Positions 5,649 to 15,877 are shown, counted from the first letter of the stretch. The stretch: 64,000 bases of DNA from an uncultured Chloroflexota bacterium (GCA_913045935.1 CAJWSY010000001.1:29660-93659); one strand, 5' to 3'. Numbers and translations: made by a program. Notes: generated by a model from the letters alone, not told the origin.

Positions 5649-6515
5649 TTAATTTGTTATAATTTTGTAGGGCTTAGAATTATTTGTTAATCCTGGTTTG
5701 GAAGTTAATTTTGTAAAATTTCTTTTTTTGAATCTGTTGTAAGCATCAGAAGAACTTTTTCTGTTTTTACAAATATAATTACAAAATATTTTCCGTTCAC
5801 TTGTAGTGCTAAACAAATCATTACAATTTTTACATAATCTATAATTTATTTTATTTGTAATCGAACTAACAAAATTATTCCATAAAAAGTTAATCAATTG
5901 GGGATGTTTATTAACTCTGTTTATAGTATTTAAATTTATATCAAACTCAAATTTAATCCCAGGAAGAGCTTTGTCATAGTGATTCAAAATATCATTAACA
6001 TACAAACTTAATGTTTTTTTTAATAAAAAATCATTATCAAAATCAGATAACAATTCAGCGATATGATAAGGTTTAAAATTCAAAGTTGGAGTTATTAAAT
6101 GTATAGATTTAGTTTCTACAAAATGATTAAACATTTTTAACAATTTGTTTTTTGTTTGATCAGATGGAGAATTCAAAAAATTACAACTCATCAAAACTGT
6201 CCACATAATTTTCAATTCAGTTAATACATTTTCAGAAGTAAAATTATGATTAAATAAAATAAAGTTATTTTCTATATATAATTTTAAATTTTCTGAAAAA
6301 TTTCTGTCAGAAACTACCGAATAATTATCAAAATACGAAAAATTAATTAGATTGAGATAATCGGTTATTTCGGGATTATTTTGATTTATAAAAGCTTCAA
6401 AGCTAATACTTGGATTTACTAAGTACAATGATTCTAAAATATTAAATTTGTCTTCTAGATATCTATATGACTGTCCATCTTCAAAATTATTTAAATTATC
6501 ATTAATGTTTAACAT
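5649..6515 (-). CDS. Hypothetical protein with C-terminal CGNR-type zinc finger
   Basis: CKNC-x13-CNYICKNR followed by a basic tail. Confidence 0.6.
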   Translation of the reverse strand: MLNINDNLNNFEDGQSYRYLEDKFNILESLYLVNPSISFEAFINQNNPEITDYLNLINFSYFDNYSVVSDRNFSENLKLYIENNFILFNHNFTSENVLTELKIMWTVLMSCNFLNSPSDQTKNKLLKMFNHFVETKSIHLITPTLNFKPYHIAELLSDFDNDFLLKKTLSLYVNDILNHYDKALPGIKFEFDINLNTINRVNKHPQLINFLWNNFVSSITNKINYRLCKNCNDLFSTTSERKIFCNYICKNRKSSSDAYNRFKKRNFTKLTSKPGLTNNSKPYKIITN

Positions 6516-6595
6516 TAGTTAGTCAAAAAAATCTAATAATTTAATTGAATATGATATATGTCTGAATTGCAATTAAAATCAAGTTATATGTTTGA

Positions 6596-9148
6596 TTATT
6601 TTTCTTTGAATTTTTCTTTGATTTCAGAAAGCTTAATTAAAGCATCTAAGGGTGTAATTTCATTAGTATCTATATTATTTATTAATTCTTTAACGTCATC
6701 ATAATTATTGTCAGTTAAATTCAGCGGTAATTGTGCAGAGATATTTTTAGATTCAAAGTTAGAATTTGATTCAAAGTTTGATAATAATAATTTTGATTTA
6801 TGAATAACTTGTTGAGGCATCCCTGCTAATTCAGCAACGTAGATTCCGTAACTTCTCTCTGAAATACCTCTTTTTATATTGTGCAAAAATACAACTCTTT
6901 GGCCATCCTCTATAACGCTAACGTGATAATTTTTAATCCTAATAAAATCTGATTCTAAAGTTGTCATTTCATGAAAATGTGTAGCAAACAATGTTCTTGA
7001 TTTCATATTATGATCTTCATGAATAAATTCTGCGACTGACATTGCAATTGCTAAACCATCATAAGTACTAGTACCTCTTCCAATTTCATCAAGAATTATT
7101 AAAGATCTTTTGGTAGCTTCCTTTAAAATCAAAGCTGTTTCTAACATTTCGGTCATAAAGGTTGATCTTCCTTCTGACAAATCATCTTCTAATCCCACTC
7201 GTGTAAATATTCGATCAACAATTCCAATTTCAGCAGATTTTGCAGGTATATAACACCCAATCTGAGCCATCAAAGTTAATATACCTACCTGTCTTATATA
7301 TGTTGATTTACCTGACATGTTAGGACCTGTAAGTAAAATTATCTGTTGACTTAAATCATCGATAATAACGTCGTTGGATACAAATTTCCCTGATTCAATT
7401 ATCTCTTCAACCATAGGATGTCTAGATTTTTTAATATTCAATTTTATAGAATTATCGATTTTGGGTTTAATATAGTTATTTTCAATTGCAATCGTGGCAA
7501 AATTTGATAATACGTCTAACTTAGATAAAATTTCTGATGAATATAAAATCAATGATGATCGTGAAATAATAAAATCACAAACATCATTAAAAATCTTTCT
7601 TTCAAGTTCAGAAACTAAATCTATGGATATACTAATTTTAGTTTCCAATTCTTTTAATTCTTCAGTAAAAAAACGTTCAGCATTAACAAGAGTTTGTTTT
7701 CTTATAAAATATTCAGGAACATTTTCTATTTGTGATTTTGTAACTTCAAAATAATACCCAAATATTTTATTGAATCTAATTCTTAGATTTTTAATTTTTG
7801 TATTTTTTCTTTCTTTTGATTCTAGTTCTGAGAGTAAAGTTTTAGAATTATTTAATGCGTAAATATACTCATCTAATTCTTTGGAAACATTTTTTTTTAT
7901 AAGAGTTCCATCACCTAATTTGCCGGAGTACTCCATATCAAAATTTCTTTCTACTAAATTTGGAATGTCTGTAATTTCAGGAAATAGTAACACAAGTTTT
8001 TTTATATTTTTATTTATTGATTTAGATGACAAGTAAGATACACTGTCATCTAAAATTTTAATACTATGAGCTAACGAAATAACATCAATCGGTTCAGGGT
8101 TAGAATTAGATATTTTAGATACTAATCTTTCAATATCAGACAATTTACTAATTTTCATTCTATATTCTTTGGTTATAGTGTTATTAACATAAAACCATTC
8201 AACAATTTCTTGTCTGTTAGTGATTTTATTTAAATTTATTAATGGTTGCCCAATATAATGTTTAAGTAGTCTTGCTCCCATAGGTGTTTGCGTACTATTT
8301 AAGGTGTTGAATAGAGAAAAAGAATTAGATTTAGAAGGAAACAAACTAAGATTCTTTCTTGTTTGAGGGTCTATAAACATATAATCAGAGACTTGATAAT
8401 ATCTTGTGTTGCCAAAATTTATATTTGCTAACAACTTATTTTTGTTCAAATAATTTAACAAACCAATAAAAGATTTTGTGTCTACATCTTTTTCAAGAAA
8501 CCATGTTTCGCTTACTATTTTATCTAGATTTTGAGCAATACTTATTTCAAAATTAAAATCTACAAATTCTCGATTATCCAAAATCACAGTATGAAAATTT
8601 TCAAAGAGTTGATTGTCTGAAGAATTCAACAATATTTCAGCTGAATTAAGTCTTGCTAACTCAGATGATATTGACTCTTTATTCAATTTGGAAACTTTTA
8701 GTTCCCCTGTAGATACGTCTATATAGGATATACCAATTATCTCATCTGAAATATACAAACTTGTAAGATAATTATTACTTTGGGTGTCGAGTAAATGCTC
8801 TTCGTATACAGTCCCTGGACTTACAACTCTTACAACTTCTCTTTCGATTATACCCTTAGAATTGACATCATCACTTGTTTGTTCGCAAATCGCAACTTTA
8901 ATATTATGTTTAATCAAAGTAGATAAATGTTGATTCAATGAATGAAAGGGAAATCCTGCTAGGGGATGTTTTTGGTTTTTCCCAAATTCTTTTTTAGTAA
9001 GTGTGATTTGTAGAATATCAGCTAAAATATGAGCGTCATTATCAAAAGCTTCATAAAAATCTCCCATTCTAAACAACAAAACTACATCAGTATAATCCTT
9101 TTTTATATTCATATACTGTTTCCAGGCAGGAGTCATATTGCTACTCAT
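6596..9148 (-). CDS. mutS: DNA mismatch repair protein MutS
   Basis: FRMGDFYE; Walker A TGPNMSGKS; STFMTEM; ILDEIGRGTST; FATHFHE. Confidence 0.97.
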   Translation of the reverse strand: MSSNMTPAWKQYMNIKKDYTDVVLLFRMGDFYEAFDNDAHILADILQITLTKKEFGKNQKHPLAGFPFHSLNQHLSTLIKHNIKVAICEQTSDDVNSKGIIEREVVRVVSPGTVYEEHLLDTQSNNYLTSLYISDEIIGISYIDVSTGELKVSKLNKESISSELARLNSAEILLNSSDNQLFENFHTVILDNREFVDFNFEISIAQNLDKIVSETWFLEKDVDTKSFIGLLNYLNKNKLLANINFGNTRYYQVSDYMFIDPQTRKNLSLFPSKSNSFSLFNTLNSTQTPMGARLLKHYIGQPLINLNKITNRQEIVEWFYVNNTITKEYRMKISKLSDIERLVSKISNSNPEPIDVISLAHSIKILDDSVSYLSSKSINKNIKKLVLLFPEITDIPNLVERNFDMEYSGKLGDGTLIKKNVSKELDEYIYALNNSKTLLSELESKERKNTKIKNLRIRFNKIFGYYFEVTKSQIENVPEYFIRKQTLVNAERFFTEELKELETKISISIDLVSELERKIFNDVCDFIISRSSLILYSSEILSKLDVLSNFATIAIENNYIKPKIDNSIKLNIKKSRHPMVEEIIESGKFVSNDVIIDDLSQQIILLTGPNMSGKSTYIRQVGILTLMAQIGCYIPAKSAEIGIVDRIFTRVGLEDDLSEGRSTFMTEMLETALILKEATKRSLIILDEIGRGTSTYDGLAIAMSVAEFIHEDHNMKSRTLFATHFHEMTTLESDFIRIKNYHVSVIEDGQRVVFLHNIKRGISERSYGIYVAELAGMPQQVIHKSKLLLSNFESNSNFESKNISAQLPLNLTDNNYDDVKELINNIDTNEITPLDALIKLSEIKEKFKEK

Positions 9149-9895
9149 TTATTTCCAAAAACGTTCCTCTATAACTTGAAATCCTTTCTTATCTTCTAAA
9201 TTTCTTTGTATATCAATAATCATATCAGGATTGCCACATGCAAAAACAATTGTATTATCTGGTTTTAAATTATTATCTAAGACATATTTGTCGACTATCG
9301 TATTTACCCTGCCAACTGATCCTTTCCATGATTTGTTTCTATATTCTTCTGGTCTACTAATAGTTGGCACATATTGAAGATTATCTTTATGTATACTTGA
9401 CAATTCGTTTAACTCTTCCAAATACCCAAATTCGTCAACATAGCTTGATCCTTGAAGAATATGAAATTTCATATCTGAATCATTATTGTCTAAATATGAT
9501 CTGGCAAAACTAACATATGGAACCACGCCGGTTACTGTACTTATTAATAAATAATTATCAAGAGTTTTATCTTTTATTTGAAATATTCCTTTAGCTTTGG
9601 GTCTCATTGTAAAAACATCACCTTTTTTCATAGTCCAAATAACAGGAGTAAGAATACCGCCTTCATCTTCTTCAACTAATTCTATAAATAACTCAATCAA
9701 TTGCTCAGAAGGAGCAGATGCGATAGAATATGCTCTCTCAATTCCATCAACACCTAGTGTACAATATTGACCTGGTTTAAAGTTGTATTCATCGGGTTTT
9801 TCAACCCAAACTTTAATCATCAAATCACTTAAATATTCTATTTTGACTATTTCCGTTTCAAGTAATTTTTTTTTAGCAGGAAAATTAGTATTCAT
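9149..9895 (-). CDS. fpr: Ferredoxin/flavodoxin-NADP+ reductase (bacterial Fpr type)
   Basis: FKPGQY, RAYSIAS FAD motif, ACGNPDMI, C-terminal EERFWK. Confidence 0.88.
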   Translation of the reverse strand: MNTNFPAKKKLLETEIVKIEYLSDLMIKVWVEKPDEYNFKPGQYCTLGVDGIERAYSIASAPSEQLIELFIELVEEDEGGILTPVIWTMKKGDVFTMRPKAKGIFQIKDKTLDNYLLISTVTGVVPYVSFARSYLDNNDSDMKFHILQGSSYVDEFGYLEELNELSSIHKDNLQYVPTISRPEEYRNKSWKGSVGRVNTIVDKYVLDNNLKPDNTIVFACGNPDMIIDIQRNLEDKKGFQVIEERFWK

Positions 9896-9925
9896 AATAT
9901 TAAAAAAATAAATTATATTTACAGT

Positions 9926-12631
9926 TTATTTTTTTATTTTAACAGACACAAGATCTAAATTAGGAACTGAATAATATTTCAAATCTGATTTTGATTCATC
10001 AAGTGTTTTAATCATATTTCCAAATAACGTCGTAATGCTGAATACATTTTTAGTTTTTCCATTTGTTATCACAATGCAATCTAAAGGCTTTGACATATTA
10101 TCAGAGAGCAATTTGATTTTTTGATTTTGTTTCAATTTGTGCTTTATAGCATCGTCTGGATGAATAGATAAATTATAAAGTTGTTTGAAAGTGGATTGAT
10201 CATTCGGTTTATGAGTTATTGTAAATCTTGATTTATTCAAAACTCTTCCCATAGCTAAGTAGTACCCATTTTGTTTGAAATCTGAATCTAAAAGAGAAGA
10301 AATTTGAAGTTGAAATTCTTTGTTTGTTGCATTCATTTTCATTGAATACAGAATATTATTTGTATTATTTTCATGAATTGGCCATGTATTCTTTTTATTA
10401 GCCTTTAAATACTTATAATCATAATTTGAATATATAGGAACAGATTCAGAAATTTCATTAAATATATTTTTTATATTGATATTTTTAAATTTCTTATCAC
10501 CAAAGTATTTTGAAAGATTTTGCATGGATTGATAAACTTGAGATTGATCAAATTTAGGCTTGATAGCAATATCTAGTAATTGAATTCTTCTTTCAATATT
10601 TGTTTTAGTTCCTTCTGATTCAGCAAAAGTCGTAGAAGGAAGAATATAATCTGATATTTCTTTTCTATTAGGATTCGATAATGATTTATGAGAAATAATT
10701 TTCATATTATTACTAACTTTATTTAAAATTTCAAATAATTCATCATTATATGATTCATTAAAATCACCTACCAAATGCAATACTTCAATTTTATTATCTT
10801 TAATGATGTCCAATATTTTAGCATATGAAATATTTCTGTTATCGATAATATCTAAATCTGTAGGGTTGTTAACTACTGTAGTAAGACCCAAATCAGTTGC
10901 TCCTTGAGAGTTTGATCCTCTATAAAGAGGGAATATTCCACCACCGCTTATGCCAATATTGCCAGTGATTAGACTTAAATCTACAAGTAATTTTACCAAT
11001 TCTTCCAAATTCTCTGGTTTTATAGTGTCATTTGAATAAATTGTTGCCATGGGACCATTTGTAAGTATATTAACTGCTTCACTAATGTCTTCTATACTTA
11101 TACCTGTAATAGCAGATACTTTCATTAAATCAAATTTCCATATTGAATTTCTGAATTCAGAATAGTTATTACAATTATTTTCGACAAAATCTTTATTTTC
11201 TAAAGCCTGATCTATGATAGATCTTATGATTCCTCCAACAAGATATGCTTCAGTCCCAGGATATGGATTTAGCCATAATGTAGCAAACTTTGTCATTTCA
11301 GTTTCTCTTTGATCAATTACTACCATCTTTGCCGTACCCGAATCAATAGATTGTTTTATCGGTAAAGATAACACATTATGGTTTTCAGTGACATTGGAAG
11401 ATACAACAAGGTAAGATTTAGAATTTTTAAGGTCTTGGACAGTATTTGAAGCAGAAGAATAACCTAGTGTTTCTGTTAGTTTGTATCTCAGCCCACTATC
11501 AAGATCTGCATTTGAAATAATATTGTTGGATCCAACAATTTCAGAACCAAATTTATTTGCTAAATACATATCTTCATTAGTTAAGTTCGAATCAATAATC
11601 ATTGCATATTTTTGAGGATCTGTATTTTGAATCAACTCGGAAATAGCTTCCATATTGTCAGCAATAGTAGATTTTACTAAAATTTTATTCTTTCGTGCCA
11701 TAGCGTAAAATATTTTAGATTTAGAATTAACAAAATCAAATCCAAACTTACCTCTAAAACAAGTTTGTCCTTTATTCGATGGTCCAGATAGATTACTACC
11801 GATTCTAACTAATTTTTCTCTTGAATTTGTTTCCAAGTCCACAGTACATCCTATAGGACAATAATTACATATAGAAGTCGTTTTGTTTTCAGCTTTTTCC
11901 CATTTATAATCCCGTTCAACTATAGCTCCTGTAGGACAAACATCCAAACATGCTCCACAAAATTCACATCCTGCGTCAATCAAGCTATCGCCCATAGAAG
12001 TTCCTATTATTACTTTTCCTGCTCTTTCCTTAACTGTCAGAGCATTATCAACTCTAACTTCAGAACAAACTCTGACACATCTGGCACAAACTATACATAA
12101 ATTCATATCCATATCCCATAATGGATCATCATTCTTTACATGCTCTCCTCTATAGTTATAAGTTAGAGGGCTATTCATTTCCATGTCTAAACTTCTGACT
12201 GTGTCTTTTAATTCACATCTTTCATTTTTTGGACAAGTAATACATCTGTCATTTACTGATACATGTCTTAGACAAATATCACTTGGTCCGCACAAATCAA
12301 TTCTATGACAAGTGAGGCAGCCGTGTGGATGTTCTGACAAAAGTAATTCCATAATTCCTTTTCTTAAATCAACTAACTCGTCAGTTTGGGTATTAATTTT
12401 CATTCCATCAGCTACAGGCGTAGTACAAGATGCAGGCATTCCTCTCCCACCTTCTACTTCAACTACACACATTCTGCATGCACCATATGATTTCATTCCT
12501 GGGTAATAACATAAATAAGGTATATACATTCCTGCATCCATAGCAGCTTGAAGTATGTTTTTACCTTTACCAGCTTTTATTTTCTTGCCATCAATAGTTA
12601 TATCTACTGTATCAATATTATTTTCTATCAT
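9926..12631 (-). CDS. NuoG/FdhA-like Fe-S protein, Mo ligand apparently absent
   Basis: [2Fe-2S] GACRMC; HxxxCxxC-x5-C; CIVCARCVRVC; CEFCGACLDVCP; CNYCPIGC..C; no C/U-H at the Fdh Mo-ligand position. Confidence 0.85.
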   Translation of the reverse strand: MIENNIDTVDITIDGKKIKAGKGKNILQAAMDAGMYIPYLCYYPGMKSYGACRMCVVEVEGGRGMPASCTTPVADGMKINTQTDELVDLRKGIMELLLSEHPHGCLTCHRIDLCGPSDICLRHVSVNDRCITCPKNERCELKDTVRSLDMEMNSPLTYNYRGEHVKNDDPLWDMDMNLCIVCARCVRVCSEVRVDNALTVKERAGKVIIGTSMGDSLIDAGCEFCGACLDVCPTGAIVERDYKWEKAENKTTSICNYCPIGCTVDLETNSREKLVRIGSNLSGPSNKGQTCFRGKFGFDFVNSKSKIFYAMARKNKILVKSTIADNMEAISELIQNTDPQKYAMIIDSNLTNEDMYLANKFGSEIVGSNNIISNADLDSGLRYKLTETLGYSSASNTVQDLKNSKSYLVVSSNVTENHNVLSLPIKQSIDSGTAKMVVIDQRETEMTKFATLWLNPYPGTEAYLVGGIIRSIIDQALENKDFVENNCNNYSEFRNSIWKFDLMKVSAITGISIEDISEAVNILTNGPMATIYSNDTIKPENLEELVKLLVDLSLITGNIGISGGGIFPLYRGSNSQGATDLGLTTVVNNPTDLDIIDNRNISYAKILDIIKDNKIEVLHLVGDFNESYNDELFEILNKVSNNMKIISHKSLSNPNRKEISDYILPSTTFAESEGTKTNIERRIQLLDIAIKPKFDQSQVYQSMQNLSKYFGDKKFKNINIKNIFNEISESVPIYSNYDYKYLKANKKNTWPIHENNTNNILYSMKMNATNKEFQLQISSLLDSDFKQNGYYLAMGRVLNKSRFTITHKPNDQSTFKQLYNLSIHPDDAIKHKLKQNQKIKLLSDNMSKPLDCIVITNGKTKNVFSITTLFGNMIKTLDESKSDLKYYSVPNLDLVSVKIKK

Positions 12632-14393
12632 TGACCACCTGCCTTATCTTACCCTGATAAACTTGTCCTGATTTAACTTGCCAGGCATTAGGACGAGTGT
12701 TAATGGGGAAAACTATATTTCTTTTTTTACAACTACCCGTAGGGCAATCGCCACTCATACATTCTTCAAAATCTTTTTGAAAATGTTTTAATGCAGAGCT
12801 TATCGGGTTATACCCTAATTGCCCATGCCCACACAAAGATCCGGCTTGCATGTTTTTACCTATTTTATTCATAAGCGCTAAATCTTCAATAACTCCTTCA
12901 CCCTTAGAAATTTTTTCAACAATTTCCAGCAGATGAGTCATTCCTAATCTGCATGGGAAACATTTACCACATGATTCATACTGACAAAAAGCTACTAATG
13001 ATTTAGTTAGATCAACAGCGCAAGTCCTGTCGTCTACCACTATAATTCCGCCAGAGCCTAAAATTGCACCTGCTTTTGCCATTTCATCAAAATCAATTTT
13101 TACTTTAAGGCTATCAGATCCTAAAACTCCTCCTAAGGGGCCTCCTGTTTGTAACATTTTAAGTTTTCTGCCATTCGGGATACCTCCGCCCAATTTCTCA
13201 ATTACATCACCTATAGACAGCCCCATCTCAACTTCGTACATTCCAGGATTAGATATGTCACCAGATAAACAAACTATGGCTGTACCAGAACTACTTTCTG
13301 TACCTGTTGATTTAAACCAGTCACTTCCGTTTCTTATAATTTCAGCAACATATGACAATGATTTAACATTATTTATGGTACTTGGCTTACCCCAAACACC
13401 ATAGGCAGCCGGAAAAGGAGGCCTTGATCGTGGTCTAGAACTTTTACCTTCTATAGATTCCATTAATGCTGTTTCTTCACCTGCAACATACGAGTCTCCT
13501 GTTAAAGAAACCTCAATGTCAAATGAAAAACCTGAACCTAAAATATTTTCACCTAATAATCCATTTTCATAAGCTTGTTTAATAGCTTCTTCAGTTCGAA
13601 TAATTGGGCCTTCATGTCCATGCCTGATAAAAACATAACCATTTGTAGAATTTGTAGCAAATCCTGCAATAATCATTCCTTCGATTAGTGTAAATGGATC
13701 ACTTTCTAATATACCTTTATCGTTAAATGCTCCTGGATCTCCTTCTTCACAATTACAAAGAATATATTTCTTACCTTTAGAATTAGCCATAAAACTCCAT
13801 TTAACACCTGTAGGAAAAGCAGCCCCTCCCCTACCTCTTAAACCAGAGTTTTTCACTTCGTTAATTACTTCTTCAGAACTCATAGAACTCAAAGCCTTAT
13901 TCAATCCCAAAAAACCTCCATTAGCAATGTACTGATGAATATCATTAAAAGCAATGTTTCCAGAATTTCTAAGAGCTATTCTGTTTTGATACTGTATTCC
14001 AGGTAAATCAGAAAATCTTGGGACCCCTTTAATTATTTGATCACCCAAAGATCCAAGTAAATTCTTTTTGATTATTTTATTTTTATTTATATAACTATCA
14101 ATGATCTCTTCAACATTTTCTATGGTCACATACCCCCAAAACATTCTTGGTTTATCTTCTAACAATACATCAATAATCGTACCCGCATAACAAATACCAT
14201 GACATCCAACTGTATCAATATTCAGTGAGATATTATGTTTTTTACTAAATCCCTTTATAGTTTGTACTATTTCCTCTGAACCCAATGATGAACCACAACA
14301 CATAGCATCGCTTACTCTGATCCATGGTATATTGCCACTATTCAACTCTGACCATCTTATGTCGCTATCATTTTTCAGACTTTCGTAACTCAA
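12618..14393 (-). CDS. nuoF: NuoF/HydB-like NADH-binding flavoprotein with N-terminal thioredoxin-like Fe-S domain
   Basis: GLRGRGGAAFPTGVKW, CNCEEGDPGAF, YVAGEETAL, ESCGKCFPCR, SLCGHG. Confidence 0.88.
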   Translation of the reverse strand: MSYESLKNDSDIRWSELNSGNIPWIRVSDAMCCGSSLGSEEIVQTIKGFSKKHNISLNIDTVGCHGICYAGTIIDVLLEDKPRMFWGYVTIENVEEIIDSYINKNKIIKKNLLGSLGDQIIKGVPRFSDLPGIQYQNRIALRNSGNIAFNDIHQYIANGGFLGLNKALSSMSSEEVINEVKNSGLRGRGGAAFPTGVKWSFMANSKGKKYILCNCEEGDPGAFNDKGILESDPFTLIEGMIIAGFATNSTNGYVFIRHGHEGPIIRTEEAIKQAYENGLLGENILGSGFSFDIEVSLTGDSYVAGEETALMESIEGKSSRPRSRPPFPAAYGVWGKPSTINNVKSLSYVAEIIRNGSDWFKSTGTESSSGTAIVCLSGDISNPGMYEVEMGLSIGDVIEKLGGGIPNGRKLKMLQTGGPLGGVLGSDSLKVKIDFDEMAKAGAILGSGGIIVVDDRTCAVDLTKSLVAFCQYESCGKCFPCRLGMTHLLEIVEKISKGEGVIEDLALMNKIGKNMQAGSLCGHGQLGYNPISSALKHFQKDFEECMSGDCPTGSCKKRNIVFPINTRPNAWQVKSGQVYQGKIRQVVNDRK

Positions 14394-14854
14394 TTTAATT
14401 CATCCATCATTTTTGATAATTTTTTTGTATTCATTTTTCCATAAAGTTTGTGATTAACACTTATTAGAGGTGCTTGAGGGCAGGCTCCTAAACACGTATT
14501 AAATTTAAGTGAAAACTTTCCATCCTTAGTATCTCCTTGATTTTCAAGATCTAATTTTTTTAATGCTGTTTGTTGCAAATCAGAAGCTCCTCCGATGTGA
14601 CATGATGGGCCCCAACATATTTCTAAATTATATTTTCCAGGTGGATCAAATCTAAAATTCAAGTAAAAGGAAGCTACTCCCCAAACATCGTTAGTTGAAA
14701 CTTTCATGAATTCCGCAACTACATTAACCGAATTTTTAGGTAAATAACCAATTTCGTCTTGCACAGCTAATAAAGAGGACAATATTGTTCTAGTAGTATA
14801 ATGCTGATTTTCAATAATATTTAGAATATATTCATCTTTGTAATCTTTTAACAT
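14390..14854 (-). CDS. nuoE: NuoE/HydC-like [2Fe-2S] subunit
   Basis: GVASFY, ICWGPSCH, CLGACPQAP. Confidence 0.88.
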   Translation of the reverse strand: MLKDYKDEYILNIIENQHYTTRTILSSLLAVQDEIGYLPKNSVNVVAEFMKVSTNDVWGVASFYLNFRFDPPGKYNLEICWGPSCHIGGASDLQQTALKKLDLENQGDTKDGKFSLKFNTCLGACPQAPLISVNHKLYGKMNTKKLSKMMDELN

Positions 14855-14950
14855 CCAAACATATAAAAATATATAAAAAGTTACTTCAATTTGATCATAA
14901 CATAAAAAATTATATTTGTTACTACCCTTTATATAAATCTTTATATAAAA

Positions 14951-14968
14951 TTGTGAAATATTGAACTA
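14951..14968. promoter_or_regulatory. Possible Rex operator upstream of nuoE-like gene
   Basis: TTGTGAA-ATAT-TGAACTA against Rex consensus TTGTGAA-N4-TTCACAA; left half perfect, right half 4/7. Confidence 0.3.
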
Positions 14969-15082
14969 GGATAATTATTAAATGCTAAATATTTTTGACC
15001 AAATTGAAACTAAATATCTTATTCACTAAAATATTTGATATACTATTACTTTACTAATGAATATACTTTTTTGGTGTTGAGT

Positions 15083-15877
15083 ATGAATAAAACAGAATTA
15101 ATTGAGGATCCTAAAGAATTATGGAATCTGATAAGAGAAGATAAATATTTAAAATCTACAGCAGGTGTAGCTCTAGGTTATTTACAAACCAACTTAGTAA
15201 CACTCCCAAGTGAGTATGCGTTTGATTTCCTGCTATTTTGCCAAAGAAATCCTAAGCCATGTCCAATTCTTGAAGTTATGGAACCAGGAGAATATGAACC
15301 AAAAATACTAGCCAAAGGAGCTGATATCAGGACTGACATTCCTTATTACAGAATATACGAACACGGTAAGTTAGTTAACGAAACAAAAAATATAATCGAT
15401 TACTGGAAAGATGATTTGGTATCTTTTTTGATTGGATGTAGTTTTACATTTGAAACAGCTATGCTTAATGCAAATATCTCTTTAAGACATATTGAACAAG
15501 ATACTACCGTACCTATGTACATAACAAACCTAGAAACACAAGCTGCAGGAAAATTTAGCGGTCCAACTGTTGTATCAATGAGACCCATCAAGAAAGAGCA
15601 TTTAGTTAGAACTGTTCAAGTTACAAGCAGATTTCCTGGAACACATGGCGCTCCATTGCATATAGGCAATCCAAATGAAATAGGAATTAACAATATTGAT
15701 GCCCCTGATTTTGGAGAGAAAGTTGAAATAAAAGAAAACGAAATTCCTGTATTTTGGGCTTGTGGAGTAACACCTCAAGCTGTTGCTTTAAAATCAAAAC
15801 CGCCTATTATGATTACACATTCTCCTGGATATATGTTTGTTACTAGTACAAGAGATGACTCTGTAGCTGTTATTTAA
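15083..15877 (+). CDS. DUF1445 putative hydro-lyase (D-glutamate cyclase/YcsI family)
   Basis: FLLFCQRNPKPCP, DIRTDIPYY, IGCSFTFE, PVFWACGVTPQ, ITHSPG; ATG 15083 preferred over TTG 15035. Confidence 0.9.
   Translation: MNKTELIEDPKELWNLIREDKYLKSTAGVALGYLQTNLVTLPSEYAFDFLLFCQRNPKPCPILEVMEPGEYEPKILAKGADIRTDIPYYRIYEHGKLVNETKNIIDYWKDDLVSFLIGCSFTFETAMLNANISLRHIEQDTTVPMYITNLETQAAGKFSGPTVVSMRPIKKEHLVRTVQVTSRFPGTHGAPLHIGNPNEIGINNIDAPDFGEKVEIKENEIPVFWACGVTPQAVALKSKPPIMITHSPGYMFVTSTRDDSVAVI

Follow-up and report, generated by a model that had tools for sequence, protein, structure and literature searches.

The closest described systems to the locus treated here are NuoEFG (Nqo1-3), the NADH-input (N) module of complex I; FdsABG, the NAD-dependent formate dehydrogenase (FDH) of R. 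capsulatus (6TG9), together with the Bfu-type FDH of Dehalococcoidia; the BfuABC enzymes (HydABC, NiFe-HydABCSL); and the NfnABC/Stn transhydrogenases (9BOV, 8OH5). The locus, at 9149..14854 of a 64,000 nt stretch of DNA (the window; GCA_913045935.1 CAJWSY010000001.1:29660-93659), consists of four tightly packed open reading frames (ORFs), all on the minus strand, in the order E (NuoE-like), F (NuoF-like), G (FdsA-like) and FNR, an Fpr-type ferredoxin/flavodoxin-NADP+ reductase. The window organism is a marine member of SAR202 (Dehalococcoidia) represented by a metagenome-assembled genome (MAG; 1.33 Mb, 96 contigs, 76% complete, GC content ~0.30); SAR202 bacteria are described as abundant and globally distributed in the dark ocean (PMC5395668; PMC5864207). 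Through sequence comparison the EFG trio is recognized as a conserved, SAR202-wide derivative of the Bfu-type formate dehydrogenase of Dehalococcoidia, in which the predicted NADH/FMN/Fe-S chain is kept.

The three-gene order and the domain set of G are those of FdsABG and of the Bfu-type FDH; however, the Cys/Sec, His and catalytic Arg are missing here, F and E are nearer to HydB and HydC than to FdsB and FdsG, and F lacks the ferredoxin domain which F of the Bfu-type loci L096 and L097 keeps. The trio and NuoEFG have in common the FMN/NADH site, clusters of the N3 and N1a types and a large subunit with the fold of a cofactor-degenerate Mo enzyme, and SAR202 genomes are otherwise without any N-module; unlike NuoEFG, the genes stand outside the nuo operon, all three products score under the NCBIfam cut-offs for NuoE/F/G (and under those for formate dehydrogenase subunits), F has an extra N-terminal [2Fe-2S]-type domain, and G keeps both ferredoxin-like-domain clusters, four extra Cys and a conserved pterin domain. 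E and F resemble BfuC and BfuB most, F having a predicted N-terminal thioredoxin-like domain and a putative Zn-hinge motif as well, whereas the C-terminal 2x[4Fe-4S] domain of all true Bfu enzymes is missing. That a Bfu module might feed Nuo has been proposed before: BfuABC in place of NuoEFG ("Nuo-Bfu") is predicted in other phyla by Schut et al. (2022, PMC9304861); according to a figure legend of that paper the search criteria for BfuB include a ferredoxin-type InterPro domain, and therefore F of this type was probably missed by the survey. NfnABC/Stn likewise pair a BfuBC-like core and an Fdh-like domain with an associated NADPH flavoprotein, but there a GltD-like domain is fused, whereas here the FNR is separate and without Fe-S, no ferredoxin-binding domain is present, and G keeps its N-terminal [2Fe-2S] domain; Pfam finds neither Fer4_20 nor Pyr_redox_2 in G of the window or its neighbours. 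A pterin-free Fdh-like domain is not new, being already known in NfnABC, where that of NfnA is described as ending in a dead-end A4-A5 branch (PMC11829005).

An earlier note, made from the sequence of the window, had described overlapping E, F and G genes with an FNR 30 nt on, a large subunit without Mo ligand or in-frame TGA that would not be an FDH, a HydABC-like core, and the absence of adjacent nuo, hydrogenase and fdhD genes; ORF calls, Pfam and NCBIfam, the alignments, the solved relatives (E and F are nearest to HydBC/NfnBC) and a scan of the window agree with each of these. To this are added that mutS abuts FNR, that the catalytic Arg is missing as well, and that F, with a thioredoxin-like domain at its N-terminus, lacks the 2x[4Fe-4S] domain at its C-terminus.

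G has as its best solved relative FdsA of the NAD-dependent formate dehydrogenase (6tg9_A, E 1e-86); among NCBIfam models Fdh-alpha (TIGR01591) scores 294 against a cut-off of 666 and NuoG 279.9 against 470.05. The ORF has no internal stop and no in-frame TGA, and residues 367-380 read GSNNIISNADLDSG; when aligned with R. capsulatus FdsA and the organism's own genuine FdhA, G lacks the single residue at the Cys/Sec position and has Asp in place of the His. Conservation was assessed with 80 related loci from public genomes, all labelled SAR202, Dehalococcoidia or Chloroflexota; the alignment of G holds 81 ligand-less sequences (the window, 77 of the 80 loci, L095, L098 and L099; the partial or split L006, L061 and L063 were left out) and five genuine FdhA. 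The Cys/Sec column contains Cys in 0/81, a gap in 80 and Met in one, and in all 79 related loci reaching the site the ligand is absent (none reads Cys-His; L061 ends before it). His is kept in 2% of the 81, with Asp in the window and Arg in most others; the Arg of the PLRGQNN motif is kept in 7, with Tyr in the window. The ligand-adjacent His and this Arg are presumed, from the FDH literature, to act in catalysis. With Cys/Sec, His and Arg gone, G is not a formate dehydrogenase as judged from the alignments.

A genuine FdhA paralog is encoded on the organism's own contig C20 and reads NIDHCTRLCHSPS (CTRLCHSPS) at the Mo-ligand site; it occurs as a fused NuoEF plus a 903-aa FdhA, beside aldehyde:ferredoxin oxidoreductase and mobA/moeA-like genes, and is likely the cell's real NAD-dependent formate dehydrogenase. 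The cell's formate dehydrogenase is therefore not G of the window, which is a diverged copy. The order on C20:7406-14415, read by eye from translations, is a mobA-like gene, a small MoaD-like ORF, a 593-aa aldehyde:ferredoxin oxidoreductase-like protein, the fused NuoE-NuoF (539 aa) and FdhA, with two moeA-like genes upstream; BLAST backs only the NuoF-like and FdhA-like pair. In a rough alignment of 139 top representatives of at least 600 aa, 104 are without the Cys and Arg and 13 have both; many of the 104 are probably ordinary NuoG, so the count does not delimit the family. At L063:7995-10846 the G gene is split in two overlapping ORFs (527 and 426 aa), by a frameshift or an assembly error.

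The N-terminal 300 residues of G contain 23 Fe-S Cys columns, all invariant in 81/81; these cover the [2Fe-2S] site, both ferredoxin-like-domain clusters, the proximal [4Fe-4S] cluster of the pterin domain (C255, C258, C262, C291) and a duplicated motif, in which C105, C108, C114, C120, C130, C133 and C139 are each invariant and the Pfam NADH-G_4Fe-4S_3 match is split. The duplicated C-x2-C-x5-C insertion is not in FdsA by alignment and is present in two genuine Bfu-type FdhA, those of L096 and L097; its Cys may hold a putative extra cluster.

E is closest among solved relatives to NfnC (111 bits) and HydC (98), with NuoE at 65-72 bits; its NCBIfam nuoE_fam score is 115.7, under the 142.4 cut-off, and C80, C85, C121 and C125 are invariant in 79/79 sequences. 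F is closest to NiFe-HydB (7t2r_B, 489 bits) and to HydB and NfnB (472), followed by canonical NuoF (~330) and FdsB (314); it scores 455.4 for NCBIfam NuoF, under the cut-off of 558.65. The NADH/FMN site and the ligands of the N3- and N1a-type clusters are present in E and F by Pfam, their Cys being invariant or nearly so; the N3-type C475, C478, C481 and C521 of F occur in 80-81 of 81 sequences. C33, C64 and C68 of the N-terminal thioredoxin-like domain align with HydB/NfnB and are found in 67/81.

The C-terminus of F differs from that of the Bfu enzymes. The hinge motif H/C-x4-C-x4-C, which corresponds to the motif reported to bind Zn at the HydB hinge (PMC10021017), is present in 71/81 (C550 and C555 likewise in 71/81), and the window F ends 36 residues past it; a short P-x-N-T-R-P tail stands where the Bfu ferredoxin domain would be, with T552, P563 and R567 in all 81 sequences, T566 in 80 and P568 in 78. 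The alignment of F to HydB stops at target residue 537 of 597, short of the ferredoxin domain; the C-terminal 2x[4Fe-4S] domain is absent in 81/81 and no Fer4 match occurs in the window F. Schut et al. describe the C-terminal clusters as present in all true Bfu enzymes and missing in non-bifurcating homologs (PMC9304861), and deletion of B3/B4 is reported to have abolished bifurcation in HydABC (PMC11829005). As F is without the ferredoxin-binding domain and G without the formate-oxidising residues, the trio is very probably neither an electron-bifurcating enzyme nor a formate dehydrogenase.

The closest genuine relatives are the Dehalococcoidia E-F-FdhA loci L096 and L097 (34% identity), which contain E, an F of 642-673 aa that includes the ferredoxin domain, and a Cys-His FdhA; the ferredoxin domain of F is present in the genuine relatives L096, L138 and L155. 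In a tree of 44 F sequences rooted on canonical NuoF, SAR202 and L098/L099 form a clade (support 0.98) with L095 as its sister (support 1.0), beside Bfu-type sequences; the G tree splits genuine FdhA plus L095 from SAR202, which is compatible with the F tree.

It is tentatively proposed, with a probability that approaches but does not reach an even chance, that the trio is the detached N-module of a truncated SAR202 complex I; the proposal is ranked first among the readings considered. The ancestor would be a Bfu-type NAD/ferredoxin-dependent formate dehydrogenase of Dehalococcoidia that lost its three formate-oxidising residues and the 2x[4Fe-4S] domain of F. NADH would reduce the FMN on F, and the N3-type [4Fe-4S] cluster of that subunit would hand the electrons on to the clusters of G; the likeliest acceptor would be the 11-subunit NuoABCDHIJKLMN complex, the genes of which lie at another place in the genome. 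This would constitute a second, independent recruitment of an FDH-like subunit into the NuoG role, with the Fpr-type FNR as a neighbour handling NADP(H)/ferredoxin and not an obligate subunit.

The proposal draws on gene content. As the earlier note had suggested checking, the organism's own nuo operon is found without nuoEFG: contig C15 has nuoA-B-C-D-H-I-J-K-L-M-N, H coming straight after D, and this junction recurs in each of the six nuo operons inspected, which come from three closed relatives (G013, G011 and G018) and one same-genus genome. Each of those four genomes has one E-F-G locus away from nuo, 1.5 Mb apart in G013. The F ortholog is the single PF01512 match in 9/13 same-order genomes, 8 of those 9 being at least 92% complete; canonical NuoF (~440 aa) is found in none of the 61 genomes of the order, second NuoF-type matches there being 527-708-aa FDH- or Bfu-type paralogs (34-43% identity). 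A strong F ortholog occurs in 57/61 and in one more is cut by a contig end; the three genomes without are 68-89% complete. NuoI is present in 60/61. The organisms respire oxygen, COX1 (heme-copper oxidase) being present in 5/5 relatives; Nqr/Rnf are found in 0/5.

Other Chloroflexota were surveyed through 34 loci, the best matches to G in a 301-genome sample, compared by BLAST with the proteins of the window genome. Eight are canonical 14-gene nuo operons and five are nuoA(B)CD-G-H..N operons without E or F; in L138 and L145 a co-oriented Bfu-type E-F-G directly precedes nuoA-L, and in L137 and L154 E-F-G lies amid nuo genes. By these last four arrangements such modules are genomically tied to 11-subunit complexes in the phylum. 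In the five operons without E or F (L139, L140, L141, L166, L167) a 763-853-aa NuoG-like gene lies between D and H of nuoA(B)CD-G-HIJKLMN. Spero et al. describe Chloroflexi genomes with 13 of 14 complex I genes, only NuoG missing (PMC4453560); this gap fits a G subunit annotated as formate dehydrogenase.

Several points weigh against a detached N-module. The attachment of EFG to Nuo is a prediction from gene content, and the trio is linked to nuo in 0/80 SAR202 loci, nor does it lie between nuoD and nuoH in the window. G is a relative of FdsA and not an ortholog of NuoG by NCBIfam, solved relatives and Foldseek, and its pterin domain is well conserved, with invariant residues of its own (D440, R442, E461, E680, R682, R796, D827), while the C-terminal part of NuoG is said to have lost all sequence conservation (PMC3144371). 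Eleven-subunit complexes of cyanobacteria are reported to function without an N-module (PMC3144371; PMC9414918), and a tricarboxylic acid cycle variant with a ferredoxin-yielding 2-oxoglutarate oxidoreductase is reported in SAR202 (PMC5395668), so that SAR202 complex I could be ferredoxin-fed. The marker for type II NADH dehydrogenase (NDH-2), PF22366, is found in 0/5 genomes but in only 3/14 controls, so absence of NDH-2 is not established. Complex prediction of G (90-901) with the organism's own NuoI (1-186), from separate alignments and without controls, gave an ipSAE of 0.00 in both runs and speaks neither for nor against.

Features of the nuo genes themselves were also noted. A second complex I is suggested by contig C69 (L001:1-2497, 2.8 kb), which carries a partial canonical-type NuoG and then NuoH, and is probably mis-binned: its NuoH has no ortholog in 7 same-genus genomes (best 40-44% identity, to their 11-subunit-type NuoH); its GC content of 0.306 matches the MAG, and another low-GC organism is the probable source. 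A NAD kinase gene directly follows nuoN on the organism's own contig (C15:28392-28931) and in L093:17929-18768, L085:17954-18838 and L088:18199-19104, identified by Pfam for L093 and L085 and by BLAST similarity only for C15 and L088; this order is a conserved link of the complex I operon to NADP synthesis. NuoI (own L002:2563-3246; L106-L134) has two forms in the order, a long one of ~221-227 aa with a ~40-residue insertion after the N-terminal MYGLG segment and a short one without it.

The earlier note had left two readings side by side, a detached N-module and a transhydrogenase with a separate FNR; both survive, the N-module ahead and the transhydrogenase weakened by the mutS control, by genomes without FNR and by the domain loss in F. 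In its present form this main rival, which is considered rather unlikely, takes EFG and FNR as a soluble, non-bifurcating relative of Nfn-Bfu/Stn that exchanges NAD(H) and NADP(H) directly, via a built-in [2Fe-2S] domain or via free ferredoxin, an Fpr-type FNR having displaced the GltD-type NADPH module. The FNR is a distant member of its family (NCBIfam ferredoxin-NADP reductase 72 against a cut-off of 390; best solved relatives Fpr 8dos_A, 62 bits, and E. coli 1fdr_A) with a two-domain FAD and NAD(P) fold. Adjacency, which the earlier note had proposed to examine in relatives, can be assessed in 77 of the 80 loci, three being too short downstream: FNR comes after G, co-oriented with it, in 70, at a distance within 300 nt in 63 (including the split-G L063) and behind a ~1-kb insert in 7, and is still beside G where mutS has moved 2-7 kb away. 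The insert is a gene for a DUF7847-like membrane protein (L071, 10854-11747, and six related loci by BLAST and ORF layout). However, mutS lies downstream of the trio in 69/80 loci, about as syntenic as FNR, and the genes are packed without spacers; as a functionally unrelated gene is equally syntenic, gene order alone is weak evidence for a link to FNR. FNR is not adjacent to G in 7/77 loci; L045 has a Gfo/Idh/MocA NAD(P)-binding oxidoreductase in its place (10849-11898). In L098 and L099, which are not among the 80 loci and form the closest sister group of the window clade, a thioredoxin follows G and the FNR ortholog (47% identity) lies in an unrelated context. Among five genomes without adjacent FNR, three have it elsewhere and two show none, one of these being a closed 3.1-Mb chromosome, and taken together 5 genomes have FNR at another place; PntB is present in 2/5 genomes, with no pattern relative to FNR adjacency. 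The reading gains from neighbours in other trios: L095, the sister of the SAR202 trio, has a 502-aa GltD-like protein (Fer4_20 + Pyr_redox_2) in the same slot between G and mutS and no FNR ortholog in its genome, and in L135, L144 and L155 (Chloroflexota, two families) the trio is followed by NfnA-like and NfnB-like genes. By analogy, NADPH flavoproteins of these three kinds beside trios would echo the fused NfnABC/Stn, the precedent in which a GltD-like NADPH domain is described as fused to a pterin-free Fdh-like BfuA (PMC11829005). It is set back by the FNR having no Fe-S cluster motif to wire its FAD to the chain (only two Cys, C45 and C220, are conserved) and by the loss from F of the B3/B4 domain that bifurcation in Nfn/Stn needs. 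A broader view, in which SAR202 would have re-invented the NADH port of complex I from a bifurcating FDH, which, stripped of pterin chemistry and ferredoxin domain, would serve the ancestral 11-subunit complex as a detachable N-module, and the same module would also dock an NADPH flavoprotein (FNR, or the GltD-like protein in the sister), so that NADH and NADPH would share or balance electrons via one Fe-S chain, is held to be distinctly improbable.

The pterin domain of G bears on another reading, in which G would bind molybdenum or tungsten bis-pyranopterin guanine dinucleotide (Mo/W-bisPGD) through a non-canonical ligand or none and EFG would be a NAD+-linked oxidoreductase for a non-formate substrate. 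Mo sites with no such ligand occur in arsenite oxidase, and Ser or Asp ligands in dimethyl sulfoxide and nitrate reductases. An AlphaFold2 model of G (pLDDT 75 overall, mostly >85 for residues 300-900) gives the four-domain pterin-binding fold of Mo enzymes with high confidence, domain IV included; Foldseek places alpha subunits of NAD-dependent FDH first, with E. coli NuoG at rank 16, NfnA at rank 24 and StnA at rank 30. The five genuine FdhA share 160 invariant columns, of which 64 hold the same residue in 80% or more of the 81 ligand-less sequences, and the Lys after the fourth Cys (75/81), the DxR, TNxERR and GRxL motifs and the proximal Cys remain; 52 columns are essentially replaced, often invariantly by another residue, which argues for selection on the pocket. 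The earlier note's description of G as an Fe-S wire is not proven, the pterin domain keeping the full fold and several pterin-site motifs. A pterin enzyme is nevertheless considered very improbable: the ligand is deleted and its flanks differ between subclades (SSNT-RPE vs SNADL-DSG), unlike a conserved active site; Molydop_binding (PF01568) finds no match in the window G and PF00384 gives 105 bits against 261-281 in genuine enzymes; the homologous NfnA domain is reported as pterin-free by cryo-electron microscopy (PMC11829005); and no fdhD, mobA or transporter gene lies nearby in the window. MoaC and MoeA, present in 5/5 relatives and thus compatible with a pterin enzyme, are uninformative on pterin binding. 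An unlikely alternative of another kind is a soluble diaphorase, EFG passing NADH electrons to some other acceptor (such as a ferredoxin for P450s/oxygenases, thioredoxin-type proteins or oxygen) and docking to neither complex I nor FNR, or else a slowly decaying remnant. All 80 loci show the trio on its own, and the gene that comes after it is not constant (FNR, a thioredoxin, a GltD-like or Gfo/Idh/MocA protein, or directly mutS); F could bind partners through its N-terminal [2Fe-2S] domain and its conserved C-terminal tail, and many ferredoxin-dependent oxygenases are reported in SAR202 (PMC5395668). Decay is excluded by the near-universal retention of the trio in the order and its invariant Fe-S ligands, and transfer from NADH to a low-potential ferredoxin would be uphill without bifurcation, the ferredoxin-binding domain being gone.

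Features of the locus and its borders (positions in the window; empty strand cells, non-coding)
Feature	Position	Strand	Details
E, NuoE/BfuC-like [2Fe-2S] subunit	14390..14854	-	154 aa; Pfam 2Fe-2S_thioredx, E 1.8e-37
F, NuoF/BfuB-derived FMN/NADH subunit	12618..14393	-	591 aa, TTG start; Pfam Complex1_51K + SLBB + NADH_4Fe-4S
Conserved C-terminal tail of F (residues 550-570)	12684..12746	-	CPTGSC hinge motif, then P-x-N-T-R-P
G, FdsA/NuoG-like large subunit	9926..12631	-	901 aa; Fer2_4, NADH-G_4Fe-4S_3, Fer4_Nqo3, Molybdop_Fe4S4, Molybdopterin
Former Mo-ligand site of G, GSNNIISNADLDSG (residues 367-380)	11492..11533	-	alignment to FDH alpha subunits
Duplicated C-x2-C-x5-C motif of G, N5-type cluster region (residues 101-139)	12215..12331	-	four extra invariant Cys
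AT-rich spacer between G and FNR	9896..9925		30 nt, read directly
FNR, Fpr-type ferredoxin/flavodoxin-NADP+ reductase	9149..9895	-	248 aa; Pfam FAD_binding_8 + NAD_binding_1
mutS (outside the module; synteny control)	6596..9148	-	NCBIfam MutS, 886 bits
Divergent intergenic region upstream of nuoE, likely promoter region	14855..15034		promoter-like hexamers

The E and F genes overlap by 4 nt and F and G by 14 nt; the gap between G and FNR is 30 nt, and the ATG of mutS comes directly after the TAA of FNR. In a scan of 6400-15100 the five genes, including G to mutS, are not separated by any terminator-like site; two such sites occur in all (14668-14682 and 13127-13140), as many as expected by chance. 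The intergenic region upstream of nuoE contains a promoter-like TTTATA-17-TATAAT on the minus strand (14937..14909), a consensus match only, 64 such sites occurring against 51.6 expected. Neighbouring genes encode D-glutamate-cyclase-like proteins, a sortase, an amidohydrolase, MutS, one unassigned ORF and an EamA transporter. In the Pfam/NCBIfam scan of the window, genes of the nuo, hydrogenase or fdhD type are absent next to the trio. The D-glutamate-cyclase-family pair (PF07286, PF14336; 15035-16728, plus strand) is divergent from nuoE; many SAR202 loci keep it close to the trio and mutS, making the block syntenic as a whole. Downstream of mutS, 5649-6515 on the minus strand holds a 288-aa ORF without Pfam or NCBIfam match. 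Word matches to part of the stretch occur in 13 marine metatranscriptome runs from 7 studies (share <=0.28), from which no claim of expression is drawn.

The literature on SAR202 covered here, to the exclusion of subscription papers and supplements (tables of PMC9304861 and PMC4453560 may list related genes), yielded no description of this trio, nor of a route of NADH oxidation in SAR202. G is likely to be annotated as formate dehydrogenase alpha because its best NCBIfam match, under the cut-off, is Fdh-alpha; formate oxidation could therefore be over-predicted in SAR202 genomes without a genuine paralog. Trios recurrently lie beside NADPH flavoproteins of three types, which points in a testable way to unfused Nfn/Stn-type enzymes. 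Should the trio be the N-module of SAR202 complex I, it would be a natural second case of an FDH-like protein becoming a "NuoG" and would bear on how complex I gained its NADH module; of the many 11-subunit complexes with no assigned electron source, at least one would then also have a named donor.

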